Part shown: one piece after another, positions 27,589 to 58,481 of the stretch
Numbering within the stretch: position 1 is the first letter of the stretch
Layout of the letters: the number at the start of each line of letters is the position of its first letter
From: an uncultured Pseudomonadales bacterium
GTDB taxonomy: Bacteria; Patescibacteriota; Microgenomatia; UBA1400; UBA12108
Assembly: GCA_964347565.1 (NCBI GenBank)
Contig: CAYFZD010000001.1
Location: 70,024 to 134,023 of the forward strand
Direction of reading: 5' to 3'
DNA length: 64,000 bases
The notes under the pieces: model-generated
What the model was told of the DNA's origin: nothing
What the model saw: the letters and a program-made list of their open reading frames with translations, nothing else
Database searches by the model: none
Program-made: the position numbers and the translations under genes

Positions 27589-27617
27589 TCGCTAATCTGC
27601 TAAAATGTGGGCTGACC

Positions 27618-30650: not shown

Positions 30651-30654
30651 TTTT

Positions 30655-31917: not shown

Positions 31918-31921
31918 CACC

Positions 31922-32893: not shown

Positions 32894-32913
32894 TCTCAGC
32901 TACAATCTTCCAC

Positions 32914-34227: not shown

Positions 34228-34239
34228 TATACTAGTGGC

Positions 34240-34587: not shown

Positions 34588-35612
34588 ACAACTTACTTGG
34601 CTTTCTCCTCTTTTCTTTTACCATCAACGCCGCCCTTATCGTCCCTTTCATCAATTTACTCTATAGCCTCAAGTTCCAGCGACCCGGGCGTGGGACAGCT
34701 GATTTTATGGGTACCGTGAATTCCATTTTCAATCGACTTCATAAGAAGAAAGTCGGCACCCCTGTGGGTGGGGGACTACTCATTATTGTCACTACCACTC
34801 TGTTGTTTACCCTTGTGATAGGGATGTTGCGCTTAGTCGGCGCCGATCTACAGAGTGTTTATGATTATCGGGGCGAGATCAATGTCATTTTTGCCACTTT
34901 TATCCTCTACGGCTTGCTCGGGCTCTACGACGACATCATCAAATTCTTTGGTAAAACCACCTATCTGGTAGGGATCTCTTGGCGCTTTAAATTTATCGCT
35001 CAACTCGTGATCGGTCTGGGGATTGGCTGGTATCTCTATCAAGTACTAGGTATCAGCATTATCAATGTTCCCTACTTTGGGGTCGTCGACCTAGGCTGGT
35101 TTTTTGTCCCGCTCTCGGCCTTTATCATCACCGCCTTTAGCAACGCCGTCAACGTCACCGACGGACTCGATGGCCTCGCCGGGGGACTCCTGATGATCAC
35201 ACTCTTCTCCCTCATTATCCTCGCCACCGCTATCCTAGATACGCCAATTACTCTTTTTATTGCTCTCTGGCTGGGCGCTATTTTGGCCTTTCTCTACTTT
35301 AATACTTATCCCGCTCGTCTCACCATGGGGGACGTCGGCGCACTCTCTTTTGGAGCCACGCTCGCGGTCATCGGTCTCATGCTGGGTAAAATCATCGCCG
35401 TTACTATCATCGGCGGACTCTTTGTCCTTGAGATTGCTTCAAGTTCTATCCAAATGTTTGGCAAACGCTATCTCGGCCGTCGCCTCTTACCCCTCTCTCC
35501 TTTCCACCTTTGGCTCCAGTCAATTGGCTGGGAAGAAACTAAGATCGTGAGCCGCGCCTGGCTCGCTGGCATTATTTTGGCCCTGTTTGGTCTCTGGCTG
35601 GCGTTTTTATGA
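34584..35612 (+). CDS. mraY: phospho-N-acetylmuramoyl-pentapeptide transferase MraY
   Basis: NAVNVTDGLDGLAGG and the other MraY blocks, about 10 TM helices. Confidence 0.95.
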   Translation: MNNLLGFLLFSFTINAALIVPFINLLYSLKFQRPGRGTADFMGTVNSIFNRLHKKKVGTPVGGGLLIIVTTTLLFTLVIGMLRLVGADLQSVYDYRGEINVIFATFILYGLLGLYDDIIKFFGKTTYLVGISWRFKFIAQLVIGLGIGWYLYQVLGISIINVPYFGVVDLGWFFVPLSAFIITAFSNAVNVTDGLDGLAGGLLMITLFSLIILATAILDTPITLFIALWLGAILAFLYFNTYPARLTMGDVGALSFGATLAVIGLMLGKIIAVTIIGGLFVLEIASSSIQMFGKRYLGRRLLPLSPFHLWLQSIGWEETKIVSRAWLAGIILALFGLWLAFL

Positions 35613-36256
35613 GCTCTGGACCTATCATCGTTTTTGATTCGGGAATTGGCGGGTTGTCGATTTATCGTCCCCTGAAAAGGGCTTTACCCCACGAAAACAT
35701 TATTTACTTCAGTGACCCGAATCATTTTCCCTATGGAGATAAGAGCTCTACCTGGTTATCTGAAAGATTCACTGAGCTTTGTCAAGAATTCAGTCTACTC
35801 TCTCCCAAGCTTGTTGTCCTAGCCTGTAATTCTGCCACCACTAACATCATCAGTGAGGTACGCTCTCACCTCAGTTGTCCAGTCGTAGGGGTAGAGCCAG
35901 TCATTAAACCACTCTCTCAATTTACCAACTCTCTCGCACTGATGACCAAGGCGACAGCCAACTCAAAGAGCACTTTGGAGCTACTCAAAAAATATGGTCC
36001 CCATGTCAAGATTTTTGTTCCTACAGGACTAGCGGTTGCGATCGAGTACAACGATTATCATCAAGTAAAAAAAAGTATCTCACAGATTAAAAAGACTGTT
36101 CTTAAATATCAGTGTGAGGCCGTGGGATTGTCATGTACTCACTACCCCTTAATACTTCCACTACTTCAAGAAGCCATGCCAAACATCAAATTTATTGACC
36201 CCTCTGAGGCAGTCGTCCAAGAGATCCAGAGGGTGCTAAAATTGAACCAAACATGA
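35609..36256 (+). CDS. murI: glutamate racemase MurI (short)
   Basis: IIVFDSGIGGLSIY...YFSDPNHFPYGDKS...LVLACNSATT, including the first catalytic Cys motif of glutamate racemases. 215 aa. Confidence 0.8.
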   Translation: MSSGPIIVFDSGIGGLSIYRPLKRALPHENIIYFSDPNHFPYGDKSSTWLSERFTELCQEFSLLSPKLVVLACNSATTNIISEVRSHLSCPVVGVEPVIKPLSQFTNSLALMTKATANSKSTLELLKKYGPHVKIFVPTGLAVAIEYNDYHQVKKSISQIKKTVLKYQCEAVGLSCTHYPLILPLLQEAMPNIKFIDPSEAVVQEIQRVLKLNQT

Positions 36257-37473
36257 ATGCATTTGAGGCAGAAATAAAAGGTAAGCAAGTCCTAGTTTTT
36301 GGTCTAGGTAATCAGGGTGGTGGAACAGGTGATTTGGCCTGGCTACAGAAGCACGGAGCCGTCGTTCGTGCCTCTGATAAAGATCTGACTCTGGTCGCAG
36401 AGGGACAAACTCCAGAGCAAATCGATTGGGCAGACATTATTATCAAAAATCCTGGTGTCCCAGATGATCATAAACTTCTCACTTACGCGAAATCATCGGG
36501 GAAGCTCATCTATACTAGCGCGGCAATCTTTGTGAAATATGCACCTATTAAGACCCTCGGCATTAGTGGGACACGTGGAAAATCTACGACCGCTGCCCTT
36601 ATCCACGCCATTTTGGAAAAAGTATACCCAGGCCAGGTATTATTTGGGGGCAATGTCGCTGGCACATCTTGCCTGTCTCTCTTTGACGAACTAGAAGGCA
36701 AAAAATATGCAGTCCTCGAACTCTCCTCTTTCCAGCTCCACAATTTTCATGAACTAAAGATCAGCCCTAATTTCGCTTTATTAACCAATATTTATCCAGA
36801 TCACCTCAATCGCTACCCCGACATGGAGAGTTACTTATATGACAAGCAAGCCATCTATCTCTACCAGAATCCAGGTGACTATCACGTCGAATATCCAGAT
36901 CCCCAGACAGTACGTGATTGGGAGACACCTCTGCCAGGAATTCATAACCTTCAAAACATTGCTGGAGCTTGGGGTATTGTTTCACGGTTGGGAGTCTCTG
37001 AGAATGTTGCTCGTCAAGTCGTATCCGAATTTACTGGTTTACCTTTTCGCCAAGAAAGGATTGCCACCATAAAAGGCATTACTTATATCAACGACACCAC
37101 TTCCACTACTCCCACTGCCGCCATGATGGCTCTCCAAGCAGCCACCATGCCCACAATCTGGATTACTGGAGGTGATACCAAAAATCTGCCATACAATGAA
37201 CTGTTGGATGTAGTCAAGACCAACCATCTACTCAAAAATATTGTCATACTTGGTTCCAAAAATATTCCTGATTACACTGCAGGTTTACTAAAAATAGCCC
37301 AAGATAAAATTATTGGTACAGTCCAGTCGATGCAAGCAGCAGTCGCGATGGCAAACAAAGTTGCCAAGCCAGGGGATGCCGTCCTCTTGTCCCCCGGCTT
37401 CGCCTCTTTTGACCTCTTTCAAAACGAATTCGATCGTGGTCGACAATTTAATGCGATTGTCACCTCACTATGA
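36253..37473 (+). CDS. murD: UDP-N-acetylmuramoylalanine--D-glutamate ligase MurD
   Basis: N-terminal Rossmann VLVFGLGNQGGG, Mur ligase P-loop LGISGTRGKSTTAALI, and C-terminal domain. Confidence 0.85.
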   Translation: MNAFEAEIKGKQVLVFGLGNQGGGTGDLAWLQKHGAVVRASDKDLTLVAEGQTPEQIDWADIIIKNPGVPDDHKLLTYAKSSGKLIYTSAAIFVKYAPIKTLGISGTRGKSTTAALIHAILEKVYPGQVLFGGNVAGTSCLSLFDELEGKKYAVLELSSFQLHNFHELKISPNFALLTNIYPDHLNRYPDMESYLYDKQAIYLYQNPGDYHVEYPDPQTVRDWETPLPGIHNLQNIAGAWGIVSRLGVSENVARQVVSEFTGLPFRQERIATIKGITYINDTTSTTPTAAMMALQAATMPTIWITGGDTKNLPYNELLDVVKTNHLLKNIVILGSKNIPDYTAGLLKIAQDKIIGTVQSMQAAVAMANKVAKPGDAVLLSPGFASFDLFQNEFDRGRQFNAIVTSL

Positions 37474-38549
37474 AAAAAATCAGTTTCTCCCTCTCTACTC
37501 GCATCATTCTAACGACGCTGCTCCTCTTAGGTTTTGGCCTCACCATGATCTATAGTGCCTCGGTCGCCGAGGGCGCTCGCGACTTTGGCAACAAATGGCA
37601 CTTTGTTCTCCTCCAACTGAAATGGGCAGGAGCCGGACTCTTGGGTATGTTTATCCTCAGCTTTATTCCTCCTCGGATTTGGGAGAAACTCGCACCCTAT
37701 ATTCTGCTTTTTGGTTTGACGCTCCTTCTTCTCGTGGCCATCCCCGGTATTGGTACAAAAGTCCAGGGTGCTAGACGCTGGCTCGTTCTCCCAGGCTTCA
37801 CCCTCCAGCCCTCAGAGCTTATCAAGATGATCGAAGTTATTTATCTTTCTTCCTGGCTTCATGCTCGTCGTGTCACGCCCACCCAATTTGGTGTATTCAT
37901 CGCCGTCTTGGGTGGACTCATTATGCTAGAGCCCGATATGGGGACTGCCCTGGTTGTGACTTTACTGGGTCTTACGATGTATTTCCTCTCTGGTTATCCG
38001 CTCAAACATTTGGCAATGCTTGGTGGAGCAGGCTTGGTTTTGGCCACCATCTTCATTGTCAGCGAGCCTTATCGTTTGGCGAGGGTAAAAACCTTTGTCG
38101 ACCCACTCCACGATACTCAGGGTAGCTCCTATCATATCCGCCAGGTCCTCCTCTCGTTGGGCTCGGGCGGAGTCTCTGGACTTGGGATCGGGCGCTCTCG
38201 GCAGAAATACGCCTACCTCCCCGAGGCGACGACTGACTCCATTTTCGCGGTAGTAGGGGAGGAGCTGGGCTTCATCGGCGGCGTTGCCCTGATTTTAGCT
38301 TTTCTCTATTACCTCTCTTTGATTTTCAAGCTGGCCGCGGCCGAAACCGACAAATTTGCCTCCTCACTTGTAGCGGGAGTCGGAGCATGGATCGGTTTGC
38401 AAGTATGTCTCAATTTGGCCGCGATGGTTGCCTTAACTCCCTTGACCGGCGTGCCACTCCCGCTTGTCTCCTACGGCGGGTCCGCCCTCGTCACCATGCT
38501 CGCAGGCGTCGGCTTCATCCTCTCTGTTGCTCGCTACGGTAAACACTGA
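37470..38549 (+). CDS. ftsW: SEDS-family peptidoglycan glycosyltransferase FtsW
   Basis: 10-TM SEDS architecture with the conserved C-terminal block LTPLTGVPLPLVSYGGSAL. dcw position between murD and murG. Confidence 0.85.
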   Translation: MKKISFSLSTRIILTTLLLLGFGLTMIYSASVAEGARDFGNKWHFVLLQLKWAGAGLLGMFILSFIPPRIWEKLAPYILLFGLTLLLLVAIPGIGTKVQGARRWLVLPGFTLQPSELIKMIEVIYLSSWLHARRVTPTQFGVFIAVLGGLIMLEPDMGTALVVTLLGLTMYFLSGYPLKHLAMLGGAGLVLATIFIVSEPYRLARVKTFVDPLHDTQGSSYHIRQVLLSLGSGGVSGLGIGRSRQKYAYLPEATTDSIFAVVGEELGFIGGVALILAFLYYLSLIFKLAAAETDKFASSLVAGVGAWIGLQVCLNLAAMVALTPLTGVPLPLVSYGGSALVTMLAGVGFILSVARYGKH

Positions 38550-38571
38550 TCCACTTGCTATACTTAAGTTC

Positions 38572-39633
38572 ATGAAAACAATCGTCATCACTGGTGGTCA
38601 TCACAACTCGGCGCTCGTTGTCGCTCAGGAATTGGTCAAGCGGGGACACAAAGTAGTCTGGATCGGACATCGCCACAGCAGTAGGGGCGATATTCAAGAC
38701 AGCGCCGAATATCTCGAGGTTACCTCTGCCCAGATTCCCTTTCATGATCTCCTCGCTGGCAAGCTGGTATTTGATCTGCATGAGCTCCTGCGACTCCCAT
38801 CCGGGTATTATTCAGCCCGTAAAATTTTGCAGAAAATCCGCCCTCACGCCATTCTTAGTTTTGGTGGGTATTTGGGAGGAACTGTGGCAATTGCGGGCAA
38901 AGTGCTTGGGATACCCATCTATCTCCACGAGCAAACCATCACTGCTGGACGCGCCAATAAATTGATCGGCCGACTCGCCAAGCGGATTTATCTGACTTGG
39001 CCAGAATCGGCCCAACATTTTAATTCTTCCAAAATCCTCGTCGTGGGTCTCCCCCTCAGAACCAGTATCTTGAGTGCCAAACCCAAATCACTCTTCACGC
39101 GCAAAAAGCCCACTCTCCTGGTGATGGGTGGCAAACAGGGGGCTCATATTCTCAATCAATTTGTTTTCTCCCATCTTACTGACTTACTCACTCACGTAAA
39201 CGTTGTTCACCAAACTGGCACCAACTCTACGACTCGTGATTACGAGCGCGCCCTCGCCCTCCAGGATTCACTCGCCAGTCTCGCTGATTGCTATCTCCCC
39301 CTAGGATACATTACTGAGAGTGAAATCGGCACCTACCTGCGTAGTGCCGACTATTATTTTGGCCGCTCTGGCGCACATATTACTTATGAGCTCGCGGTCC
39401 TTGGTTTACCCGCATTACTGGTCCCCTTGATGTCTACGCACGACCAGGAGCAACTCAAGAATGCCCATGTGCTTTCAAAAGCTAATTTAGGAATAGTTCT
39501 TGCCCAAAGCGAACTGACTTTACCCCATTTCCTCACCAAGCTTACCCAACTCAAATCACTCTCAGGTCAAACTCTCGCCCTTCCCAAAAATAGCGCCCCA
39601 CAGTTGGTCGACGACTTATGTCAAAATATTTAG
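38572..39633 (+). CDS. murG: undecaprenyldiphospho-muramoylpentapeptide beta-N-acetylglucosaminyltransferase MurG
   Basis: MKTIVITGGHHNSALVVAQEL, a GT28 N-terminal G-loop, and C-terminal GT-B domain. The start was chosen at the internal ATG downstream of the ftsW stop. Confidence 0.85.
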   Translation: MKTIVITGGHHNSALVVAQELVKRGHKVVWIGHRHSSRGDIQDSAEYLEVTSAQIPFHDLLAGKLVFDLHELLRLPSGYYSARKILQKIRPHAILSFGGYLGGTVAIAGKVLGIPIYLHEQTITAGRANKLIGRLAKRIYLTWPESAQHFNSSKILVVGLPLRTSILSAKPKSLFTRKKPTLLVMGGKQGAHILNQFVFSHLTDLLTHVNVVHQTGTNSTTRDYERALALQDSLASLADCYLPLGYITESEIGTYLRSADYYFGRSGAHITYELAVLGLPALLVPLMSTHDQEQLKNAHVLSKANLGIVLAQSELTLPHFLTKLTQLKSLSGQTLALPKNSAPQLVDDLCQNI

Positions 39634-40334
39634 TCTTTACCCGCGAAATCATCGCACCTTCTCTCGTGGTGCTTGGTGTTTTAGCTCTCGCCTACATCAC
39701 GATATACTCTTCCTTTTTCAAAATTACCTCGATTGACTGCACCCAAGATTTCCGTCCGTGCGAGAATCCTGCCCTCCTCAGTGAACTCGACAAACTTGTT
39801 GGTCAAAATCTCTTTACCCTCCCTGTGTCCAAACTCAAAACCAGACTACTCTCGGGAGATTTTATGTTACGTGAGTTAGAAATACACAGACGATTACCCA
39901 GCCACCTTCAATTTACCCTCCAGTCAGTCTATCCCGTGGTGTCACTCCAAATCTCTGGGGATCCTAGCTGGGTAATCTTTGATTCCCAATTCCGTGTCAT
40001 TGGACGTCACTTGAGCGACCCCAATGTCCCGACGGTGATCGTGTCAGGTCCACTGACTTTAACTGTTGGTAAGGTCATCCCCGATCAAGACATCATTCGC
40101 TCACTTGCGCTCGCCCTCCGCCTCAGGGACTCGTTGATCTCATTCAAAACACTTACGCTCGTGGATCCTGACACCCTCGAGCTCAAGCTAGATAAAGGCA
40201 TAGTCGCGATCTTTACTCCCAAAATCGAGGAGTCTTCCCAGCTCCACTCATTGCAAGCCGTCCTCTCTGACGCTACAATTATGCAAGGAGTGCACGTTAT
40301 TGATGTGCGTTTCGCTCAGCCCGTGTTACGCTAA
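39618..40334 (+). CDS. ftsQ: FtsQ/DivIB-like cell-division protein
   Basis: Single N-terminal TM (PSLVVLGVLALAYITIY) followed by a POTRA-like and beta domain. Positioned between murG and ftsA. Confidence 0.55.
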   Translation: MSKYLVFTREIIAPSLVVLGVLALAYITIYSSFFKITSIDCTQDFRPCENPALLSELDKLVGQNLFTLPVSKLKTRLLSGDFMLRELEIHRRLPSHLQFTLQSVYPVVSLQISGDPSWVIFDSQFRVIGRHLSDPNVPTVIVSGPLTLTVGKVIPDQDIIRSLALALRLRDSLISFKTLTLVDPDTLELKLDKGIVAIFTPKIEESSQLHSLQAVLSDATIMQGVHVIDVRFAQPVLR

Positions 40335-40424
40335 TAAAGATGATAAGATCAATCATATGACCAACAATATAAATTCTAATAAAAATCGAAATGGTTGCAG
40401 TGTAACGAAGTGGAACGAAACACC

Positions 40425-41717
40425 ATGAAAAAGATATCTCAATATGCGGTTGTAGATCTAGGCTCTTCCAAAATCACCTGTATCATTGCCACGCGGGGAG
40501 ACGAGGATAGTACCTTGCGGGTCGTAGGAGTCGCGAGTGTTACTAGTCGAGGTATCCGCAAAAGTCAAATTGTGGATATTGAGGAGTCGATCGAAGCCGT
40601 TACTGAAGCTGTCGAATCGGCCGAGCGCATGGCTGGGCTCTCGATCAAAGATGCGACCGTTTCCGTCTCTGGCATTCACGTCGAATCACTCAACTCCAAA
40701 GGTTTGGTCGCTGTGCAAGATCAGGGAGGCGAGATCACCTCTACCGACGTGCTGCGCGTGATCGACGCCGCCAAGGCCGTCCCTCTCCCTCCCCAAAGGG
40801 AGATCCTGCATGTGATTCCTCGTTTTTTCCTCGTCGACAACCAAGATGGCATCAAAGATCCCGTCGGAATGTCTGGTGTGCGACTAGAGGCCGAGGCCCA
40901 TTTGATCACCGGCTCCTCCGTGAACCTCAAAAACATCGCGAGGGTTATGAGTGAAATAGGCGTGGACACGCGCAGTATCACTTTCGCCGGTTATGCCTCC
41001 TCGCTCTCTACGCTTACCGATACCGAAAAAGAGCTCGGTACCGTGATTATCGATATAGGGGGAGGTACCACCAGCCTCTGTGTCTACCAAGAGGGGGCTC
41101 TCTCTCATTCGGCCGTGTTACCAGTCGGCGCCAAAAATATCACCAATGATATCGCTATCGGACTACGCGTCAGCCTAGATAGCGCCGAGATCATCAAACG
41201 CAATTTAGCGGAGGGTGAGCAAATTGCCAAAGTGTTAGACCCTAAGAGTGTCAGTAGCAAAAAGCAAGCCGACGAAATAGATCTCCACAAACTGGGTTTA
41301 AAAGATGCCCCACGCAAAATTTCCCGTAAGGCAGTTGTCGAGGGAATTGTCCGTCCTCGTCTCAATGAGATCTTCGAGCTCATCAAAGCCGAGCTCATCA
41401 AGGCGGGCATGGGGGGCAAGACTCCCGCCGGACTCGTCCTCACAGGGGGAGGGGCTATGACGTATGGTCTTAGCGATACCGCCCGTAAAATCCTTAATAT
41501 GCAATCACGCATTGCCACCCCGGTGGGTCTCACTGGGCTAGTTGATGAGATCAATACACCCGAATACGCGACCGCCGCCGGATTACTCATCCTCTCTCAG
41601 CGGGATGAAGGACGCCCAGCAAGTTCTGGACTCAAACTCCCCAAATTGAAGTTTAAATTGCCGACTTCGCATTCTGTGAAAAAAGTGATAGACTTCATTA
41701 AGAGTTTCCTGCCCTGA
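40425..41717 (+). CDS. ftsA: cell-division protein FtsA
   Basis: [16 protein letters not shown] actin-fold phosphate-1 motif, [10 protein letters not shown] phosphate-2 motif, and a C-terminal amphipathic tail. Confidence 0.9.
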
Positions 41718-41727
41718 TAGGAAATCT

Positions 41728-42855
41728 ATGGGTCTAGTAAAACCAGATTTAAACGCGGTCGCCAAAATCAAAGTGATTGGAATTGGAGGTGGAGGCAACA
41801 ACGCCGTGGCCTCGATGGTCACCACTGGTAAGATCAAAGGTGTCGAATTCGTCTCTATCAATACCGACTCGCAAGCACTCCTCAATAACCCAGCCAGTGT
41901 CAAAATCCAGATAGGAGAGAACCTCACCAAGGGTCTAGGTAGCGGCGCTGATCCCGAGATCGGAGCCCAAGCCGCCCAAGAATCTCGTGAAAAAATCAAA
42001 GAGCTTCTCATGGATACCGACATGGTCTTTATCACCGCTGGTATGGGCGGTGGAACTGGCACAGGAGGCGCTCCCCTCATTGCCGAGATTGCGAAGGAAG
42101 CGGGTGCCCTGACTGTCGCTGTCGTCACCAAGCCCTTTGCCTTCGAAGGCATCCGTCGCATGAGTGTGGCCGAGGACGGGATCGAGGAGCTCAAAGGCAA
42201 GGTAGATACTCTCATCGTGATCCCCAATCAAAAACTGATGGACGTGGTAGACAAAAAAATGACGCTCCAGGAGGCCTTCCGGGTCGCTGACTCGGTGCTT
42301 GGCCAAGGAGTGCAAGGGATCTCTGATCTCATCACCGTGGCTGGGCTCATCAACGTCGACTTCGCCGACGTTCGCGCCATCATGACCGACGCCGGTACTG
42401 CGCTCATGGGCGTGGGTATGGGAACGGGAGAGAATCGCGCCCAAATGGCGGCTCGTACTGCTATTTCTTCTCCATTACTTGAGGTTAAGATCGACGGGGC
42501 CCGTGGGATTCTCTTCAATATTACTGGTGGCCCGAGTCTCACCATGACCGAGGTCTCCGAGGCCGCGGAGATGATCTCCACGCACGCCGACCCCGACGCC
42601 AATATCATCTTTGGCGCTACGATCGACGAGGCGATGGGTGACCAGATCAAGATCTCGGTGATCGCGACCGGGTTCGATAATACAAGGGGAGGATTTGGCA
42701 ATCTCCAGGGCATTGGTCAGTCTGCGACGATCAAGTATGACCCCTCAGATGATGACACCCCCAGCGACGACGACGATTCCACCGCGCCTCCCAAACCACC
42801 CGCCTCCGACTCTAGCGATCCCTTCGATATCCCGGCGTTCTTAAGACAAAATTAG
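41728..42855 (+). CDS. ftsZ: cell-division GTPase FtsZ
   Basis: [10 protein letters not shown] tubulin signature, the NTDAQAL-like region, an acidic linker and the conserved C-terminal FtsA-binding peptide DIPAFLR. Confidence 0.97.
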
Positions 42856-49674: not shown

Positions 49675-50052
49675 ATGAGTGATACCCAAAAACATATCTT
49701 GATAGTGGAAGATGATGATCTAATCGCCAAATTGTACCAAGCGAGTTTGGTAGATTCTGGTCTTCACATTCAGCTCGAAACTGATGGTGACTCAGGTTGG
49801 CAAGCACTACAAGCCCAGATTCCCGACTTGGTGATACTAGATATCATGCTCCCCAAACTCAGTGGTCTCGATCTGCTCGAGAAGATGCGTGCTGATGAAC
49901 GACTCAAAGTAGTGCCCGTGATCATGTTAAGTAGTCTCAGTAGCGAGTCCGACAAAGCACGAGCGCTGGCGGCCGGGGCCAATGCTTACTGGGTCAAAAA
50001 CGAAGTTGATATGCCACAGTTCTCGGCACAAATCAAAAGCTTCCTCCCATGA
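49675..50052 (+). CDS. single-domain response regulator (CheY-like REC only)
   Basis: ILIVEDDDLIAKLY...DLVILDIMLPKLSGLDLL...VPVIMLSS gives the acidic pocket, phospho-Asp and conserved Lys region. There is no output domain (125 aa). Confidence 0.85.
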   Translation: MSDTQKHILIVEDDDLIAKLYQASLVDSGLHIQLETDGDSGWQALQAQIPDLVILDIMLPKLSGLDLLEKMRADERLKVVPVIMLSSLSSESDKARALAAGANAYWVKNEVDMPQFSAQIKSFLP

Positions 50053-51299
50053 CTAACCTATTCAAATATTTTTCCCCTCAGTCATCACTCACTGATGGCT
50101 TAAATAAACGGCTTGCCACTATCACTTCGTCCGAAATCAATCTACCCATACTTGAGAAAAAACTCAGAGATATTCTAGTGGGAGAGTTCTCTGCATCTGG
50201 CGCGGCATTTGTCCTAGTTGCGGACTTTGTCGCCGCTCCTCCCGATTCTCTAATCACGCCCAATCCCTTAAATCTCAAATATGCTCGTCTCGAGAAACTC
50301 CAACACCGCGTCAAACAGACCATGATCTTGGACCAACTTACCGATCCGGCCGACAAACAGCTGTTTGCTGATTTGGGCATTGCTCTGATCTTACCCCTCA
50401 CTGTCCAAGAAGAGGATCTTGGTCTCCTACTTTTGGGTCCTATAAAAAATCATAAGAGTTATCGACCATCCGAGATCAAATCACTCGAGTCAGTCCTCGC
50501 CAGTATCTCAATTGCAATTAAAAATGCCCTAAGTTACCGCAAAATCCAAGAACTCAGTGCCTCCCTGGAGAGCAAAGTCATCGCTCGTACCCACGAACTA
50601 CAGGCCGCGCAAGAAGCCCAGCTCAAACTCAAAGACGAATTTGTCTTTATTGCCACCCACGATATCGCCACCCCAGTAGCCGCGATTACTGGTTTTGTTG
50701 CCCTCATCAATAGCCAAGGTGCAGAGCTCCCCTCTGAGATCAAGAATTATCTCGATTCCATTACGCAAGCCAGTAATCGTTTGAGCGCCCTGGTCAAAGA
50801 TCTTTTGGAGGTTGCGAGGTCCGACTCCAATACCATCAAGCTTGCTCTTACCCAATTTGATGCCAAGCCCATTATTGAGTCTGTGGTTGAGACCATCACT
50901 CCCCTCGTCAAGCAGAAAAATATTCAGTTGGTACTGGCACTGGGGAATGACAACCTCGTTCTGGCAGACCCAGCCAAACTCGCCGAAGTCTTTGAAAACT
51001 TACTTAGCAACGGAGTCAAGTACAACAAAGTTGGGGGTGAACTCAAACTCACCTCCAGTATTTTTGCCGACCAACTAGTCTTTACCCTGACCGATACTGG
51101 TATCGGGATTGACCCAGCAGAGTCTCCCAAGGTCTTTACCAAATTCTTCCGCTCAGACTCACCCGAGGCTAGAAAAAATCCTGGTACCGGTCTAGGCCTG
51201 TTTGTGGCCCGTATGCTCACGCAAAAAATGGGTGGAAAGATTTCCTTTACTTCAGTCCTAAACCAGGGGACAACATTCACCCTTACCTTTAACCGTTAA
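50049..51299 (+). CDS. soluble sensor histidine kinase (GAF/PAS-like N-terminus, HisKA + HATPase_c)
   Basis: H-box FIATHDIATPVAAITGF, N box LLSNGVKYN, G boxes DTGIGI and GTGLGL. No TM segment. ATGA coupling with the REC gene. Confidence 0.8.
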   Translation: MTNLFKYFSPQSSLTDGLNKRLATITSSEINLPILEKKLRDILVGEFSASGAAFVLVADFVAAPPDSLITPNPLNLKYARLEKLQHRVKQTMILDQLTDPADKQLFADLGIALILPLTVQEEDLGLLLLGPIKNHKSYRPSEIKSLESVLASISIAIKNALSYRKIQELSASLESKVIARTHELQAAQEAQLKLKDEFVFIATHDIATPVAAITGFVALINSQGAELPSEIKNYLDSITQASNRLSALVKDLLEVARSDSNTIKLALTQFDAKPIIESVVETITPLVKQKNIQLVLALGNDNLVLADPAKLAEVFENLLSNGVKYNKVGGELKLTSSIFADQLVFTLTDTGIGIDPAESPKVFTKFFRSDSPEARKNPGTGLGLFVARMLTQKMGGKISFTSVLNQGTTFTLTFNR

Positions 51300-51337: not shown

Positions 51338-53023
51338 ATGATACTGCCCGACGATCAACTGCGCGCTATTCTCGAAAAAAACGGCTCGGTCAACCCAGAA
51401 ATTCTAAAAGCCATTGCTCCACTCTTGGGGAGTGAGCATGGTGGACTCTCTGCTCAGCTCATCTCTCGCCATATTTTGACCGACGAGCAACTCGGCCAAA
51501 TTTTAGCTAAAACAATCAAAGTTCCCTTTGTCACCCTCTCCAAGCTCAGTATCACTCCCGATGTGTTTGCTCTCGTCCCTCCCCGCCTGATGCTCAAAAA
51601 CAAACTTGTGGCCTTTGAAAAAACCGGCAAAACCCTCAAGGTAGCCATGTCCGATCCTCGCAACAAAAGTCTGGTCGAAATGCTCTCCAAAAAAACCGAT
51701 CTCAAAATCGAGGTTTACTATGCCACCGAGTCAGATATTACCAGTCTAGTCAGTCTCAACAAAAAACCTCTTCAGCTCACGATCGATGAATTACTCAAAA
51801 ACGAGATCGCCCTCTCCACTAGCTCCACCAGCGATAGTCTGCCTATCGCCAAGATCGTTGATATTCTCATCAACACAGCCTACGAAGATCGTGCCTCTGA
51901 TGTCCACATCGAGCCCCAAGAGACCGAGAGTCTCGTGCGCTTCCGTATCGACGGGGTGCTCCAGGATGTTTTACGTCTCCCCAAACCCATCCACGATCGC
52001 ATGATTACCCGTATTAAAGTTCTCTCCAATCTGCGTACCGACGAGCACATGAGTGCTCAGGATGGCAAGATGCGGGTTATGATCCCCCAGGAACAGCTCG
52101 ATATTCGTGTCTCGATCCTGCCCGTCTCAGGTGGAGAAAAAGTTGTCATGCGTCTTTTATCCTCAAAGTCGCGGGAGTATTCGCTCGAGAGTCTTGGTAT
52201 GGCCAAAGAAGATCTGGTCAAGCTCGAGCGCGCCTATGCCCAGACTTATGGCATGATTCTCTCTACAGGCCCCACTGGCAGTGGCAAGACTACTTCGATT
52301 TATGCCATTCTCAAAATTCTCAATACCCGGGAGAAAAATATCACCACCATCGAAGATCCCGTCGAGTATTGGATCAGTGGTGCCAACCAAGTACAAGTGA
52401 ACGTCAAAACTAATCTGACCTTTGCCGATGGTTTGCGCTCCATCCTGCGACAAGACCCCAACATTATATTTGTGGGTGAGATCCGCGACAACGAAACGGC
52501 GGGGATCGCGGTGAACGCTGCCTTGACCGGTCACTTAGTGCTCTCGACTCTCCATACCAACGACGCAGCCACCGCTATTCCCAGACTTTCCGATATGGGC
52601 GTCGAGCCCTTCCTCGTGGCCTCGACTGTCCGCGTCATCGTGGCTCAGAGACTCCTCCGCAAGATTTGCGATAGCTGTAAAACTAGTATCGATTTCACGC
52701 TCCAAGAGCTCTCTAAACACTTTGCACTAGAGACCCTCAAAAAATATTTCCCTTCAGGTACAAAAGTCACGACCTATCGCGGCGCTGGCTGTAAGCTCTG
52801 TCACAAAACAGGCTACAAAGGACGTCTAGGCGTCTTTGAGGTACTCGAGGTCAGCAAGGAGATTCGCAGCCTAATCGCGCAAAAATCCGACGCCGAGGCT
52901 ATCAACCAGCAGGCACTCAAAGAGGGGATGCGCTCGATGCTCGATGACGCCATGATCAAAGTGCAAAAGGGCCTGACTACGATCGAGGAAGTGATCCGGG
53001 TTACCAAGTCGGAGGCGCTATGA
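51338..53023 (+). CDS. pilB: type IV pilus / type II secretion assembly ATPase (PilB/GspE family)
   Basis: N-terminal GspII-like domain, Walker A GPTGSGKTT, Asp box, Walker B, His box and tetracysteine motif CDSC...CKLC. Confidence 0.92.
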   Translation: MILPDDQLRAILEKNGSVNPEILKAIAPLLGSEHGGLSAQLISRHILTDEQLGQILAKTIKVPFVTLSKLSITPDVFALVPPRLMLKNKLVAFEKTGKTLKVAMSDPRNKSLVEMLSKKTDLKIEVYYATESDITSLVSLNKKPLQLTIDELLKNEIALSTSSTSDSLPIAKIVDILINTAYEDRASDVHIEPQETESLVRFRIDGVLQDVLRLPKPIHDRMITRIKVLSNLRTDEHMSAQDGKMRVMIPQEQLDIRVSILPVSGGEKVVMRLLSSKSREYSLESLGMAKEDLVKLERAYAQTYGMILSTGPTGSGKTTSIYAILKILNTREKNITTIEDPVEYWISGANQVQVNVKTNLTFADGLRSILRQDPNIIFVGEIRDNETAGIAVNAALTGHLVLSTLHTNDAATAIPRLSDMGVEPFLVASTVRVIVAQRLLRKICDSCKTSIDFTLQELSKHFALETLKKYFPSGTKVTTYRGAGCKLCHKTGYKGRLGVFEVLEVSKEIRSLIAQKSDAEAINQQALKEGMRSMLDDAMIKVQKGLTTIEEVIRVTKSEAL

Positions 53024-54087
53024 CAGACAAAACCAAACAATTTGCGAGGGTGACCCTCAAGGGGACCGAAAAACTCGAGTTGATCGGAAGTTTTGCCACC
53101 ATGCTTGGCTCTGGTATCTCAATCCTAGATATGGTCAAGTCGCTCGCCGAGGATACCAAGGGGGGTCAGCGCCTCATCCTCGATGAAATGCGCGACGATT
53201 TGACCCAGGGTAAACGGATCTATGTGACTTTTGCCAAGTTCCCTCGCGTCTTCGACCATGTGAGTGTCAATGTCATCCGCGCCTCCGAGGAGGCCGGAAC
53301 GCTCGACGTCGCCCTACGAGATCTACGCACTACTCTCCAAAAGGACATGGAGTTCTCCGACAAGATTCGCTCGGCCCTCATGTATCCCGCCTTTATCCTC
53401 GTGGTATTTGTCGGGATCTTGGGTATGATCTTAACTTTTGTGATCCCCAAAATTAGCGTCGTCTTTACCCAGCTCAATGTTCCGCTCCCGTTCCCCACCC
53501 GCGTAATGATTTTTCTCTCTGACCTCGTCGTCAAACAAACACTCTGGTTTGGGCTGGGGCTTGCAATTGTCGCCGGACTCTTGTTTTATCTCTTTAGCTA
53601 CAAGCGCAAACAAGTACTCGAGGTCCTTTATCGGCTTCCCCTCATCTCCACCCTAGTTATGCAGATCGACGTCACCAATTTTGCCCGCAATCTCTCCGTT
53701 CTCCTCTCATCCGGTCTCCCCATCACCCAAGCACTTGACCTAGTGGCCGAGGTCGTGGTGCGCCGTCGCATGGCCCAGCTTTTACTCAACGCCAAAGCGA
53801 TGGTGCTGGCTGGTCGCCCGCTCTCCTCCGGGTTTCGCGATGACAAAGGCGCTGTCCCCAATATCGTCATCAAGCTCGTAGAGGCCGGGGAGAAAACTGG
53901 CTCGCTCGACCGCTCGCTCCAGGAGATCGCCGAGTACTTTGATTACAAAGTGACCTACACGCTCAAATCGCTGACCGCACTCCTTGAGCCCATCATGCTC
54001 GTTCTAGTGGGCGGGGTTGTCGGGGGGATGATGCTCGCAATCATTGCTCCAGTTTATGGACTCATTAGTCAAATTGGTGGGCACTAA
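53020..54087 (+). CDS. pilC: type IV pilus platform protein (PilC/GspF family)
   Basis: Two GspF repeats with 3 TM helices, 355 aa. ATGA coupling to pilB. Confidence 0.88.
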   Translation: MTDKTKQFARVTLKGTEKLELIGSFATMLGSGISILDMVKSLAEDTKGGQRLILDEMRDDLTQGKRIYVTFAKFPRVFDHVSVNVIRASEEAGTLDVALRDLRTTLQKDMEFSDKIRSALMYPAFILVVFVGILGMILTFVIPKISVVFTQLNVPLPFPTRVMIFLSDLVVKQTLWFGLGLAIVAGLLFYLFSYKRKQVLEVLYRLPLISTLVMQIDVTNFARNLSVLLSSGLPITQALDLVAEVVVRRRMAQLLLNAKAMVLAGRPLSSGFRDDKGAVPNIVIKLVEAGEKTGSLDRSLQEIAEYFDYKVTYTLKSLTALLEPIMLVLVGGVVGGMMLAIIAPVYGLISQIGGH

Positions 54088-54088
54088 G

Positions 54089-54499
54089 ATGAAGTGGGGA
54101 CTTGCCCTGAGCTTGCCGAAGGGTTTCACTCTCGTGGAGCTCATGGTCACGATTGGGATCTTTGCGGTCCTAGCCACTCTCTCCTCGATCAATTTTTTCT
54201 CGACTTATTCCCAGTCCAATTTGGGTGCCACGCAAGATGTCTTGATAGCTGATTTAAAAACTGCCCAATCTAACGCCATGTCAGGCTCCTCGGACGTCAC
54301 CTGGAGCATTACAACGATGACTCCGCTCTCGCCAGGCCTGACTTTGACTACTGAGTATCCTAGTAATCAAGTCACTTTTCTGCGTGGATCGGGTGAAATC
54401 TCTGGCTACAACAGTGATTACGACACCATTACCATCAGTTCAAGTATCGAAAGCAAAACGCTAGAACTCAATAAATATGGCACCATCACGGGAAATTAA
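54089..54499 (+). CDS. type IV pilin-like (pseudopilin) protein
   Basis: Class III signal MKWGLALSLPKG|FTLVELMVTIGIFAVLA, i.e. the prepilin peptidase site and N-methylation motif. Start taken at MKWGL. Confidence 0.8.
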   Translation: MKWGLALSLPKGFTLVELMVTIGIFAVLATLSSINFFSTYSQSNLGATQDVLIADLKTAQSNAMSGSSDVTWSITTMTPLSPGLTLTTEYPSNQVTFLRGSGEISGYNSDYDTITISSSIESKTLELNKYGTITGN

Positions 54500-56464
54500 A
54501 TGAAATTATTTAAATACGGTCAGGCACTTGTAGAGATGATGGTGGGGATGGGTATCGCCGCCGCCATCATGCCTGCGCTCGTGACCTCGTTCTTTGCTGC
54601 TCGCGGAGGGAGCGCCCAAGAGCAAGTGCGCATGCAGGCCCATGGACGCCTGCGCGAGGCCCGCGAGGTTTTGCGACTAATCAAGCAAGACGATTGGGAT
54701 GCTGTCGACACTCCTGAGACGTACCACCCAGCTTTAGTCTCAGGTTCCTGGCGCTTAGATCCGGGACTAGAGTCCAACCTCGATGGACTCTTCAGTCGCC
54801 AAATCATTCTCTCTTATGCCTATCGCACAGGGACAAACCAACTAACTACTCTCTCTGCGGGGAATACTCTAGATCCCTCTGTTATGCACGTCAATATCTC
54901 CGTCGCCTGGACCAATCCCATCGCTTCTTCCGTTGTCTCTGATTACTATCTTATGCGCCTCGAAAACCTCGCGCATATCGAAACCTCTTATGCCGACGAC
55001 TTTGACTTGGCCACGAACCCCAACGTCGTGCATCGCTCGACGGTCGCCACCAATGTCTCAGGAGGCGAAGTCCAGCTCGGGGGATCAGGTAGTGGGGTCG
55101 GCAACTGGTGTGATCCTAGTCTGACCCTCCAGACTCTCAATCTGGTTCACTCCTCCGTCCCCACCTCCATCTCTGCGATCGAAGGTCACGCCTACGCCAC
55201 GACCGGAGAAAATGCCTCTGGACATCCACTCACAAGCATTAACATCACCAATCCTCCTCCTCCCACCCTACCCACTCCCACTGAGGGGGGGAGTTACAAT
55301 CCCAACCCTCAGCCCAAAGCCTACGGCTTATTTGCCACCAGCAATTATGTATATATTGCTACCAAACCGGCCGGAAATCCCAAAAAGACAGTCGATATTT
55401 TAAATACTTCTTTAGTCTCTGTAGGGTATTTTGACGCAGGTAATAAAACAGGCGATAGCATTTATGTGTCAGGCACCGTTGGTTATGTGACCAGCGGCAC
55501 GACTCTCTACACTTTTGACTTGTCCGGGACAATAAATCCTTCTCCAGGGTTGCTCAGTACTACGATTGCAGGTAACGGTAAAAGGGTCATCGTCATGGGT
55601 AACTACATCTATGTAGTCACTGACAATACGACATCTCAGCTACAAATCTTTAACAAAAGTAACTTATCTCTCGTCAAAACGCTCAACTTAGGCAACAGTC
55701 AACCAGGTGTAGATATCTTTGTCAAATCTACAAGCGACTACGCCTATATGGTTACTAATTACGCCTCCCCCGACTTCTTTGTCATCGATCTCTCCAACAA
55801 CACTGTGGTAGGCACCTACACTACCGCCAGCAACATGAACCCCAGAGGTGTCACAGTCATACCCCAGGATAATATCGCGATCATTGTCGGAGCAGGGAGT
55901 GACTTGTACCAAGTCCTGCGAATTGGTATTCCCACTAGTCCCTCTAGATGTGGCACTCCGCTCACTTTTCCGAATGTGAGCGAGCTTTACGCGATCTCGT
56001 CTGTCACCGAGTCCGACACCGATGCCTATTCGTACGTCCTCACGAACGACGCGAGTAATGAATTCCAGATGATCCAGGGTGGCCCAGGCGGAGGGGGCGG
56101 AGGCAGTGCCCTCACTGGCGTTTTTGACTCCGAGCCCTTCACGCCCGTTAGCCTCGCCACCTTCAACCGTTTCGACGTCAATACCTCTTTACCTGCTGGC
56201 ACTTATGACAATTACCAAGTTGCTGTAGCCAACAAAACCGCAGGTGGTAGTTGCATCGGAGCTAACTACATATTTGTTGGACCGGGCATGGATCCCAGTC
56301 AATGGTTTACAACTAGCGCGCAGATACCCCTGGGCATCGGTACGGGAGCCGCTTTGGGATATGTCAATCCAGGGCAATGTTTTCGATACAAAGTCTCGCT
56401 CTCCACCGACACTCTGGGCACCTCCCCCATCTTTAATGATATTACAATCAATTACTCACTATGA
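54500..56464 (+). CDS. large pilin-like protein fused to a YVTN-type beta-propeller domain (candidate pilus tip adhesin)
   Basis: The N-terminus GQALVEMMVGMGIAAAI resembles a prepilin hydrophobic segment. The body has repeated YVVTD / YAYMVTN / YVTSG blades reminiscent of YVTN beta-propeller repeats, and a GGPGGGGGGS tract near aa 525. Confidence 0.55.
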   Translation: MKLFKYGQALVEMMVGMGIAAAIMPALVTSFFAARGGSAQEQVRMQAHGRLREAREVLRLIKQDDWDAVDTPETYHPALVSGSWRLDPGLESNLDGLFSRQIILSYAYRTGTNQLTTLSAGNTLDPSVMHVNISVAWTNPIASSVVSDYYLMRLENLAHIETSYADDFDLATNPNVVHRSTVATNVSGGEVQLGGSGSGVGNWCDPSLTLQTLNLVHSSVPTSISAIEGHAYATTGENASGHPLTSINITNPPPPTLPTPTEGGSYNPNPQPKAYGLFATSNYVYIATKPAGNPKKTVDILNTSLVSVGYFDAGNKTGDSIYVSGTVGYVTSGTTLYTFDLSGTINPSPGLLSTTIAGNGKRVIVMGNYIYVVTDNTTSQLQIFNKSNLSLVKTLNLGNSQPGVDIFVKSTSDYAYMVTNYASPDFFVIDLSNNTVVGTYTTASNMNPRGVTVIPQDNIAIIVGAGSDLYQVLRIGIPTSPSRCGTPLTFPNVSELYAISSVTESDTDAYSYVLTNDASNEFQMIQGGPGGGGGGSALTGVFDSEPFTPVSLATFNRFDVNTSLPAGTYDNYQVAVANKTAGGSCIGANYIFVGPGMDPSQWFTTSAQIPLGIGTGAALGYVNPGQCFRYKVSLSTDTLGTSPIFNDITINYSL

Positions 56465-56982
56465 GCCATCAACCATTAACCATTAACCATAAGCTCGGTT
56501 TTACAATCCTTCGACTTCGCTCAGGATTTACAATGGTCGAGATGCTCATGGTCATGGGGATCACAGGCGTGATGCTCGTAGTCCTCTCCCAGGTTTTTGG
56601 CGCTATACTCAGCATGAAACTACGCTCCCAGGCGACGAGTTTCGTGGCCCAAGATTCACGCTATGTCCTCAATCGTCTAGCTTACGACGTGATGCGCGCG
56701 AGCGATATCGTGAGCGGGAGTGGCAATACCCTCACCCTCACGATCGACGGAGTGAGTCATGCTTATTCAGTCTCTGGCACCACCCTCATGCTCTCTGTGG
56801 ATGGAGCTCCAGAAGAGAAGCTCACGGGGATCGGAACCCAGATCAGCTCGCTGACTTTCACCCGCACAGACTTGAGCGGTCACAAGGCCGTCCAGATCAG
56901 CATGAATATTGCCCCCACCATTATCCAGCCAGGAGGCGTGACCGGGGCGCGTCAGCTTACGACCACCGTGGCATTGAGGTAA
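56461..56982 (+). CDS. type IV pilin-like (pseudopilin) protein
   Basis: SG|FTMVEMLMVMGITGVMLVVL prepilin motif after a 22-aa leader. Confidence 0.7.
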   Translation: MSHQPLTINHKLGFTILRLRSGFTMVEMLMVMGITGVMLVVLSQVFGAILSMKLRSQATSFVAQDSRYVLNRLAYDVMRASDIVSGSGNTLTLTIDGVSHAYSVSGTTLMLSVDGAPEEKLTGIGTQISSLTFTRTDLSGHKAVQISMNIAPTIIQPGGVTGARQLTTTVALR

Positions 56983-56988
56983 AAATAT

Positions 56989-57357
56989 ATGAAAAAAGGC
57001 AACGTCTCTATCATGCTTGTCCTGATCATCATGGTGCTCACCGTGCTCACAACTGCCGCCGTGGCCCTCGCCATCTCTACCACTCGTGATACCACCACCA
57101 TCACACTCGGTGAGCGCGCCCTCACGATCGCCGAGTCCGGGGCCGAGAATGCGATTCTGCGACTCCTACGTGATCCCAGCTATACGGGGGAGTCAGGCTT
57201 GCTGATTGGTCCCGGGTCTGCCACAATTGCAGTCACGGGGACATCACCCAAAACCATTACCAGCACAGGGGCCGCAGGCGCATTTACCCGCATCGTCAAA
57301 GTCGATGTGACGAATGTGGGAGGCGCGCTCACCCCAACCAATTGGCGAGAAGAATAA
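56989..57357 (+). CDS. PilX-like minor pilin / pilus assembly protein
   Basis: N-terminal hydrophobic segment SIMLVLIIMVLTVLTTAAVALAI without a G-F cleavage motif. Small, Thr-rich, and located in the pilin gene array. Confidence 0.45.
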   Translation: MKKGNVSIMLVLIIMVLTVLTTAAVALAISTTRDTTTITLGERALTIAESGAENAILRLLRDPSYTGESGLLIGPGSATIAVTGTSPKTITSTGAAGAFTRIVKVDVTNVGGALTPTNWREE

Positions 57358-57358
57358 T

Positions 57359-58009
57359 ATGCTAGGACAAAAAAGTTGGCTCACGATCATGCTCAGCGGC
57401 AATTCTCTGCAATTTATTGGACAGGATATCGATGTAGTCCAGACTATCCCACTCCCCCCGACGCTAGTCAATAACATGGAGGTCGTCAACAAAGATGGTC
57501 TCTACACCTTGATCACCGACTGGGTCAAGGCTCGCACCTATACCAACACCAATATTCTGCTCCTACTCGCTCCCGATCTTTGTTTTTATCATCAATTTGT
57601 GAATATCGAGCAAGACAAGGTAGATAGTGAGACCCTCCAATTCCTCGATACCGTCCCCTTTGAAAGTGTTTTGAGTCGTACCTATGCACTCGGTGAGGGG
57701 AGGCAGATTATCGCGGCAAACAAGGATCTGGTCATGGCCCTCGTCCAGGGCTTCACGCTCCACGGCTACACCACCAAAGTCGTCGTACCCGCTATTCTCG
57801 CCCAGGCTGAGACTGGCCTCACTCCCGAGGTAGAGAATTATGCCTTCAAACACCTGACAGAGCTCACACGAGATAGCCTCATCTCTGAGGTAGCGCCCGT
57901 TGTTTCCTCGGTAGCAAAGCCCAAACCCAAATCTTCATTGCCACTACTACTGAGTGTTTTTGGAGTGCTACTTGCAATCCTCGTAATTGTGATAGTATTA
58001 AGTAAGTAA
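57359..58009 (+). CDS. hypothetical C-terminally membrane-anchored protein of the pilus locus
   Basis: 216 aa with a soluble N-terminal domain, a Lys/Pro linker and a C-terminal TM (LLLSVFGVLLAILVIVIVL). No family recognised. Confidence 0.4.
   Translation: MLGQKSWLTIMLSGNSLQFIGQDIDVVQTIPLPPTLVNNMEVVNKDGLYTLITDWVKARTYTNTNILLLLAPDLCFYHQFVNIEQDKVDSETLQFLDTVPFESVLSRTYALGEGRQIIAANKDLVMALVQGFTLHGYTTKVVVPAILAQAETGLTPEVENYAFKHLTELTRDSLISEVAPVVSSVAKPKPKSSLPLLLSVFGVLLAILVIVIVLSK
57972..58001 (+). promoter_or_regulatory. candidate promoter for the major pilin gene (TTGCAA ... TGaTAGTAT extended -10)
   Basis: TTGCAA at 57972-57977, TG at 57990-57991 and TAGTAT at 57993-57998, located inside the 3' end of the upstream gene. 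It leaves a roughly 27-nt leader carrying GGAGG. Confidence 0.35.
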
Positions 58010-58031: not shown

Positions 58032-58481
58032 ATGAAACTTGCCCAAGTTATTAAGAAAGGGTTTACATTAATCGAGCTCCTGGTCGTCATCGGGATTCTG
58101 GCAATTTTGCTCGCCATCACCCTGATCGCCATCAACCCTGCGCGTCAATTCGCGCAAGCCAACGACACCAAGCGCAAGTCAGATGCTGCCGCGATCTTGA
58201 ATGCGATCGGGCAATATAGTGCTGACAATGCAGGCGCACTGCCTGGCACACTGGGCACAACCGCCCTCGAGATCAGCAATACAACTACCGCAGATATCTG
58301 TGATGAGTTGGTGCCTACCTATCTCTCAGCTCTCCCAGTTAACAATGCTACTGGTACTGGAGTATCGCTAACGACTTGTCCGGCCACCTACGCTACAGGT
58401 TATACCGTCAGCGTAACCGGTGGTAGAGTTACCGTCTCTGTTCCCGGACAGATCACTGACCCGATTACTGTCACTCGTTAA
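58032..58481 (+). CDS. pilA: major type IV pilin (PilA-like)
   Basis: MKLAQVIKKG|FTLIELLVVIGILAILLAI is a canonical type IVa prepilin leader plus N-methyl-Phe segment. A perfect GGAGG sits 6 nt upstream, and the gene is followed by a strong terminator. Confidence 0.9.
   Translation: MKLAQVIKKGFTLIELLVVIGILAILLAITLIAINPARQFAQANDTKRKSDAAAILNAIGQYSADNAGALPGTLGTTALEISNTTTADICDELVPTYLSALPVNNATGTGVSLTTCPATYATGYTVSVTGGRVTVSVPGQITDPITVTR

Follow-up and report, generated by a model that had tools for sequence, protein, structure and literature searches.

Here, we describe a gene for a large multidomain protein that lies within a type IV pilus cassette on contig CAYFZD010000001.1, in a stretch of 64,000 nucleotides that we refer to as the window. 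The gene is an open reading frame (ORF) of 654 amino acids with an ATG start at positions 54500-56464 of the + strand. It had been proposed as such in the original prediction made from this DNA and is real. It is tightly coupled to its neighbours: the stop codon of the upstream gene abuts its start codon (TAA/ATG), and its own stop codon overlaps the start codon of the downstream gene (ATGA). From the N- to the C-terminus, the product is predicted to comprise a pilin module, a seven-bladed β-propeller, a flexible glycine hinge and a jelly-roll β-sandwich. Conservation was scored in an alignment of 46 homologues of the protein, and the same alignment was supplied to AlphaFold2 for structure prediction. 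Scanning one genome for each GTDB species identified 95 loci, and N-terminal motifs were counted in 81 family ORFs recovered from fetched loci; synteny was evaluated by tblastn with the proteins of the window against 80 species-level loci.

The protein begins with the class III (prepilin) signal MKLFKYG/QALVEMMVGMGIAAAIMPALV, where the slash, here and in the motifs below, marks the predicted cleavage position. The leader peptide MKLFKYG (residues 1-7; 54500..54520, +) ends in Gly-1, the predicted prepilin-peptidase cleavage site, and Glu+5 is followed by the hydrophobic run MMVGMGIAAAIMPALVTSFFAA. Gly7, Leu10 and Glu12 are conserved in at least 90% of the homologues, and Glu12, which is Glu+5, is nearly invariant across the family, as is Gly-1. 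In 72 of the 81 family ORFs, a hydrophobic run follows the pattern G-x-x-[LIVMF]-[LIVMAP]-E, with Gln at +1 in 58 of these, and the signal of the 654-aa protein aligns in register with that of the adjacent minor pilin (PKG/FTLVE; hhalign E 3.9e-5). In the AlphaFold2 prediction, the pilin fold is represented by an extended α1 helix and a β-sheet. The helix (residues 8-64; 54521..54691, +; 7-64 in the model) includes Glu+5 (E12) and the hydrophobic α1N segment, and the segment after it (54692..54985, +) has strands at residues 73-162 with predicted local distance difference test (pLDDT) values of about 85-96. An inter-module linker with pLDDT values of 54-69 follows (residues 163-204; 54986..55111, +) and ends in W203-C204; both of these residues and P206 are invariant.

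Comparisons at the level of profiles point in the same direction. PF07963 (N_methyl) matches 18 of the 46 relatives (best E 3.8e-6) and TIGR02532 matches three. Searched against the PDB, the N-terminal profile gives weak matches to pilin α1 segments (Geopilin at E 0.04, Thermus thermophilus PilA, PilE1), and such segments make up 6 of the 10 matches listed, both best matches included. A search with a profile of residues 5-165 yields fragments of the family and also short proteins. One of the latter, P0065, is a standalone pilin of 162 amino acids (G/LTLVE) homologous to residues 7-150, approximately (profile columns 3-147; hhalign 99%, E 5.4e-18), and its gene in locus L086, which is from another lineage, occupies the same slot as the gene described here, i.e., that of the second pilin gene after pilC. 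Because the pilin module is homologous to a standalone pilin encoded in the equivalent slot, the 654-aa protein is, as judged from its sequence, a normal minor pilin with a C-terminal extension of 450 residues. The pilin-like N-terminus suggested in the original prediction is thus upheld by the signal, the predicted fold, this homology and the neighbouring pilin genes. The matches that would identify the protein more closely as GspI, PilV or ComGE are weak (ComGE 9/46, GspI 2/46 and PilV 1/46 relatives); one standalone relative carries the Joint Genome Institute name PilV. Two other candidates were rejected. P0053, which had been considered as a further standalone relative, is adjoined by ORFs of 368 and 137 amino acids on a contig of long-read style, the most likely explanation being a full-length gene that is split or frameshifted. 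The other, a 562-aa protein whose gene lies downstream in L086, had been taken for a possible detached head and is unrelated (hhalign probability 0.2%). In L085:6001-8467, on a contig of 1.23 Mb, the family gene is present as three consecutive ORFs (239, 368 and 137 amino acids), probably on account of frameshifts in a long-read assembly or as a pseudogene.

The central part of the protein, residues 205-526 (55112..56077, +), is modelled as a seven-bladed β-propeller of the LVIVD type with 27 strands, mostly at pLDDT >90; the whole-protein model has a mean pLDDT of 86.2 and a predicted template modelling score (pTM) of 0.64. The repeated blade-like motifs noted earlier are real; they occur in one blade after another, on the second strand of each (YVYIATK, VGYVTS, YIYVVT, YAYMVT, IAIIVGA, AYSYVLT), and the structure prediction that had been suggested as a check returned the propeller fold. 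The assignment of this propeller to the YVTN type did not hold: TIGR02276 and other YVTN models have no match in the protein of the window at E<=1 or among the 46 relatives at E<=0.1. Instead, PF08309 (LVIVD) matches 40 of the 46 relatives (best E 1.1e-12), the choice-of-anchor B model TIGR04312 matches 25 (best E 2.6e-7) and PF09826 (Beta_propel) matches 11. The protein of the window itself scores 13.7 bits with PF08309 (E 0.04; cut-off 20.2 bits) and E 0.11 with TIGR04312, in both cases under the curated cut-off. On these profile matches, the family belongs to LVIVD/choice-of-anchor B, with the window sequence as a divergent member. In blade 7, an acidic loop (E504-x-D506-x-D508) is conserved; by analogy with PilY1, whose metal site we presume to be comparable to this loop, it might, speculatively, bind a metal.

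The propeller is followed by the glycine-rich tract and the Cys-containing C-terminal region that had been read from the sequence. The tract GGPGGGGGGS spans residues 527-536, and its GGPGGGGGG part (residues 527-535; 56078..56104, +) forms a flexible hinge in the model, with pLDDT <50 at residues 529-535; G527 is invariant, with G528, G533 and G534 close to invariant. The C-terminal domain, residues 536-654 with the C-terminus N-Y-S plus the stop codon (56105..56464, +), is modelled as a jelly-roll β-sandwich over residues 539-654. Searches of the PDB by sequence, with the whole protein and with a profile of the C-terminal domain, gave nothing significant, and the label "lectin-like" for this domain can be taken as a hint at the level of the predicted fold only. 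Jelly-roll domains of the galactose-binding-like, discoidin and CBM32 kinds were considered as possible relatives of it. All four cysteines of the protein (C204, C484, C585 and C627) are conserved, and C585 and C627 lie in the C-terminal domain. In a relative with two tandem propellers (L043, see below), each propeller has its own cysteine pair at matching positions, one in the W-C motif at its start and one in R/L-C-G-G near blade 6. This repeated pair supports the inference from sequence that disulfides would form between C204 and C484 within the propeller and between C585 and C627 within the jelly-roll. MdbA-like disulfide oxidoreductases are enriched in Candidate Phyla Radiation (CPR) genomes (PMC6744442). 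The protein has 14 N-x-S/T sites compared with 8.4 +/- 2.5 in composition-preserving shuffles of its sequence (fraction 0.03), a marginal enrichment, and only N238 and N651 are conserved; the suggested glycosylation of such sites is therefore not supported.

The protein represents a large family that is, as far as its members are named, patescibacterial. We found 47 homologues at 34-75% identity, all metagenomic, and those with names belong to Patescibacteria (Saccharimonadia, Shapirobacteria). The 95 loci derive largely from Levybacteria, Gottesmanbacteria, Amesbacteria, Roizmanbacteria and Woesebacteria, i.e., Microgenomates. Many of the GTDB records with a CPR-type cassette (L005, L010, L011, L018 and others) are titled "uncultured Gammaproteobacteria" or "Pseudomonadales", titles that seem to be placeholders or errors of labelling. 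When 1.84 billion representatives of clusters at 50% identity were scanned in full with HMMER, 1,473 of them matched at E<=1e-30. Among the best 150 of these 1,473, nearly all are 620-720 amino acids long and matched end to end. The protein is present at full length in all 80 loci examined for synteny (aligned fraction 1.03), with a median identity of 36.5% compared with 30-40% for the other minor pilins and 58% for PilB.

Some members of the family vary in the number of propellers. The ORF L043:5956-9024 (DATLDE010000005.1) encodes about 1,007 mature residues with two tandem propellers ahead of the same C-terminal jelly-roll. Each propeller opens with the W-C motif and closes with a GGPGG or GGSGGG linker, and the Gly linker seen in the 654-aa protein thereby also stands between the two propellers. 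The record for L043 is titled "Candidatus Limnocylindrales", and its cassette is CPR-like. The search of representatives also recovered relatives of 897-1,998 amino acids with 2-11 matched stretches, of which P0204 (1,998 amino acids), P0185 (1,262 amino acids) and P0175 (953 amino acids) are distantly related and combine a pilin N-terminus with several LVIVD propellers and, at the C-terminus, a related domain; P0185 additionally has a large insertion within the pilin module. These architectures suggest a broad superfamily of the form pilin-(propeller)n-jelly roll. Swapping of modules was considered for P0045 and P0046, both of 821 amino acids, and rejected, their architecture being equal to that of the 654-aa protein with an enlarged propeller.

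The gene is part of a conserved operon in which all genes lie on one strand at fixed offsets, in the order pilB, pilC, minor pilin, the gene for the 654-aa protein, minor pilin, pilin lacking Glu5, 231-aa protein and major pilin. This order is found in 67-76 of the 80 loci, all but a few of the tblastn matches are on the strand of the family gene at near-constant offsets, and the gene calls of L001-L004 repeat it. The operon opens with a PilB-type assembly ATPase (51338..53023, +; T2SSE E 5.6e-127, MshEN E 1.9e-15; syntenic in 73/80 loci) and a PilC-type platform protein (53020..54087, +; T2SSF E 8.6e-50; 76/80). The first minor pilin, G/FTLVE, is GspH/ComGD-like (54044..54499, +; N_methyl E 2.2e-7, GspH E 8.5e-7, ComGD E 5.2e-6; 71/80), and its true start is probably an internal ATG near 54089. 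Downstream of the 654-aa protein, the third pilin gene encodes the minor pilin G/FTMVE (56461..56982, +; TIGR02532 E 2.7e-4, weak matches to GspH and to ComGF at E 0.0064; 70/80). The fourth encodes a pilin-like protein of 122 amino acids without Glu+5 (56989..57357, +; 76/80). In the relatives of the latter, one in five of which was sampled, the signal reads G/Q-x-L-[VIM] followed by Thr, Ile, Leu or Val at +5 and never Glu, one of them being G/MIVIT. Minor pilins of the GspK/PilX type, which are tip pilins, are likewise known to lack Glu5. The copy in the window reads KKG/NVSIM, and with a median identity of 40% this protein is the best conserved minor component. The 654-aa protein is accordingly encoded by the second of four consecutive minor-pilin genes (GspH/ComGD-like, the gene described here, a further pilin and the Glu5-less pilin), an arrangement that we take to mirror the H-I-J-K order of the core minor pilins. 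The 231-aa protein (57314..58009, +; 67/80) carries a transmembrane segment at its C-terminus, matches no family and may replace alignment proteins of the PilM/N/O type. The major pilin, KKG/FTLIELLVVIGILAIL (KKG/FTLIE; 58032..58481, +; N_methyl E 1.2e-7, TIGR02532 E 2e-8, GspG E 4.3e-8; 69/80), has the highest conservation among the pilins of the cassette, with a median identity of 56%. In a pattern search of the window, class III-like motifs with Glu+5 were confined to the pilin genes of this cassette.

Directly upstream of pilB, the window encodes a response regulator (49675-50052; Response_reg E 8.9e-23) and a histidine kinase (50049-51299; HisKA, HATPase_c). By tblastn, 36 of the 80 loci have a response regulator close to the cassette and only 5 have the kinase; a kinase is nonetheless called beside the cassette in L001-L004, and regulation of the cassette may be conserved while the kinase diverges. 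Elsewhere, the window carries genes for cell wall synthesis and division, as well as for isoleucyl-tRNA synthetase. The upstream region 25843-42855 holds a complete cluster with penicillin-binding protein, Mur ligases, MurB, MurA, an MraY-type protein, FtsA, FtsZ and, later, FtsW, which indicates that the organism makes peptidoglycan. Nearly all long ORFs are on the + strand, and the GC skew is negative in all 2-kb bins of the window (cumulative -3.6); an unusual disparity in strand composition has been described for a published Microgenomates genome (PMC7143001).

Altogether, we consider it probable that the 654-aa protein is a modular minor type IV pilin of the pilus of an ultrasmall patescibacterial (CPR, Microgenomates-type) organism in which the propeller serves as a ligand-binding head at the tip. 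We suggest that the 7-residue class III leader would be cleaved after Gly7 by a prepilin peptidase whose gene lies elsewhere in the genome, and that the mature N-terminus (QALVE..., with Glu+5), the 58-residue α1 helix and the small β-sheet would make up the pilin module that enters the filament. Onto this module, the seven-bladed LVIVD-type propeller, the flexible poly-Gly hinge and the jelly-roll β-sandwich would be grafted. The protein would most likely join the three other minor pilins in a priming complex that reaches the tip of the pilus, and the head formed by propeller and jelly-roll would be exposed at or near the tip and bind a ligand there, probably some component on the surface of a host cell or a partner cell. 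This suggested binding function is derived from the architecture of the protein, from the behaviour of modular pilins (PMC8179133) and from the lowered host binding in the absence of PilX2 in TM7x (PMC11623550). By analogy with these systems, the tip-adhesin role that the original prediction had assigned to a propeller displayed on a pilin is plausible. A more far-reaching version of this proposal is possible, although we advance it only tentatively: in Microgenomates-type CPR bacteria, a core minor pilin in the GspI/PilV position and a docked PilY1-like adhesin may have merged into one obligatory tip polypeptide, in which the propeller and a phage-tail-like jelly-roll would, as a receptor-binding head, recognise the envelope of the host.

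Several results weigh against a tip-exposed binding pilin. The protein of the window has no match to the N_methyl and TIGR02532 models at E<=1 and has Gln at +1 rather than the usual Phe, and its low score on the N_methyl profile is probably explained by this substitution. The pTM of 0.64 leaves the geometry between the domains uncertain. In a Foldseek search of the PDB, the C-terminal domain has no match under E 0.026 and, thus, no close solved relative. Conservation is even over all modules of the protein (0.51-0.60), and a comparison of four classes of propeller loops (0.57, 0.53, 0.51 and 0.46) showed neither a conserved face nor a hypervariable patch; accordingly, neither a binding site nor host-specific diversification is visible. 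Within the window, a motif search alone gave no peptidase A24/prepilin peptidase, tblastn with PilB gave no PilT or second PilB-type ATPase, and no pilM/N/O genes were found. PilD has been reported to be widespread in CPR (PMC6744442). The mismatch to the N_methyl models and the unusual Gln at +1 could also be taken to mean that the protein is a non-pilin surface protein held by an uncleaved signal-anchor helix and encoded among pilus genes by chance or co-regulation. However, a mere anchor would not need Gly-1 and Glu+5, which are nearly invariant over deep divergence; moreover, the module shares homology along its entire length with a canonical standalone pilin from the equivalent slot, its predicted fold is a long α1 helix with a sheet, and the synteny with pilin genes is nearly universal. 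Because of the two conserved residues and the homology to the standalone pilin, we regard a plain membrane anchor as the least likely of the alternatives and very improbable.

The remaining alternatives accept the protein as a pilin and concern what it does. It could be a core priming or regulatory part that acts like PilY1 in priming, in counteracting retraction or in surface sensing, with the propeller as a structural cap or sensor. Its presence at full length in all loci, its rate of divergence, which is that of the other minor pilins and comes with no visible diversifying modules, and the acidic loop with its putative PilY1-like metal site, a comparison that is our assumption, are in line with such a role. 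However, in TM7x, PilX2 is dispensable for the extrusion of filaments and needed for host binding (PMC11623550), and the Pfam model for PilY1/PilC matches none of the 46 relatives at E<=0.1. As an alternative to binding, we consider a priming role rather unlikely; the two roles are not mutually exclusive. The cassette could also be a Com-like machine for DNA uptake and the protein the DNA receptor of a competence-type pilus, as DNA uptake has been proposed for CPR pili (PMC6744442). The genes are ordered much as in comGA-GB with ComGD/GE/GF/GG-like pilins after them, with the matches to ComGD and ComGF given above and ComGE in 9 of the 46 relatives, and PilT was not found in the window. However, the ComG matches are weak and mainly cover the N-terminal helix, DNA binding is not typical of propeller and jelly-roll folds, and T4P-2 mutants of TM7x have no competence defect (PMC11623550), making a DNA receptor improbable in our view.

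Reading the protein as a tip-exposed binding pilin places it beside several known systems. Functional and structural precedents in CPR are two pilins of Nanosynbacter lyticus TM7x, PilX2 and the jelly-roll pilin PilX1 (PMC11623550). PilX2 is proposed to be a tip adhesin, and its deletion lowers binding from ~10.6% to 4.6% of host cells with filaments retained (PMC11623550). Like the 654-aa protein, PilX2 of the Saccharibacteria T4P-2 is a CPR minor pilin with a non-canonical signal and a C-terminal seven-bladed propeller and is the largest pilin of its locus. By description, the two differ in that the PilX2 propeller is reported to consist of RCC1 repeats, whereas the propeller described here is an LVIVD-type one, with a Gly hinge and an additional jelly-roll behind it; in addition, PilX2 is encoded in a pilin-only locus and the 654-aa protein between pilC and the major pilin. 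Modular pilins, i.e., proteins in which a linker connects an N-terminal pilin module to a module that is not specific to pili, have been argued to be tip-exposed adhesins (PMC8179133), and the 654-aa protein fits this definition. Dataset S1 of Raynaud et al. 2021 lists architectures of IPR012902 with one to 12 copies of IPR013211 (PMC8179133), the latter being the LVIVD repeat (PMC10210494), and an 860-aa modular pilin from Falkowbacteria is mentioned (PMC8179133). That catalogue is built on InterPro signatures only, describes the motif as "of unknown function" and gives neither a fold nor an operon position nor a C-terminal domain. The protein of the window is one of many family members that are below the N_methyl and LVIVD thresholds and would therefore be missed by it. 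CofB of the type IVb pilus of enterotoxigenic Escherichia coli and PilB and PilC of Streptococcus sanguinis also carry bulky C-terminal binding modules on a flexible linker, with the tip as the proposed site (PMC8179133); their modules are a β-repeat with a β-sandwich, a vWA domain and a ConA-like lectin, and they belong to other pilus classes and organisms.

PilY1/PilC, the tip adhesin of type IVa pili in Pseudomonas aeruginosa, Neisseria and Myxococcus, resembles the 654-aa protein in being large and in having a seven-bladed propeller. It is located at the tip alongside four core minor pilins and functions in adhesion and priming, a position and a role that would be comparable to those proposed here. 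However, PilY1/PilC is a non-pilin (PF05567, IPR008707) that docks on the minor-pilin complex, whereas the 654-aa protein has its own class III signal and pilin module and PF05567 matches none of its 46 relatives; PilY1 is therefore a functional analogue and not a relative. In LVIVD/choice-of-anchor B surface proteins (PF08309, TIGR04312), a propeller built from this repeat family is held at the surface by various anchors; what sets the protein described here apart from the others is that its anchor is a type IV pilin module.

The combination of a pilin with LVIVD repeats is already known, and the protein described here is a well-resolved new example rather than a new kind of system. Conceptually, it does not go beyond modular pilins and TM7x PilX2, and it would be unsurprising to a specialist. 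Falling under both the N_methyl and the LVIVD thresholds, it does indicate that signature-based surveys undercount modular pilins. A life attached to other microbes is presumed for CPR/Patescibacteria, with type IV pili as the best candidates for the organelle of attachment. If a minor pilin and a PilY1-like adhesin have indeed merged in this family, it would be the primary host-recognition device of a large, uncultured episymbiotic branch, with its reach or avidity tuned by how many propellers (1 to 5 or more) are present. We suggest that the family provides a well-defined candidate for the binding head by which Microgenomates-type lineages recognise their partners. It is a good candidate because it is large, nearly universal in the cassette and confidently modelled, and because its clean module boundaries would allow the head to be expressed alone, making it a useful experimental handle on attachment in CPR.

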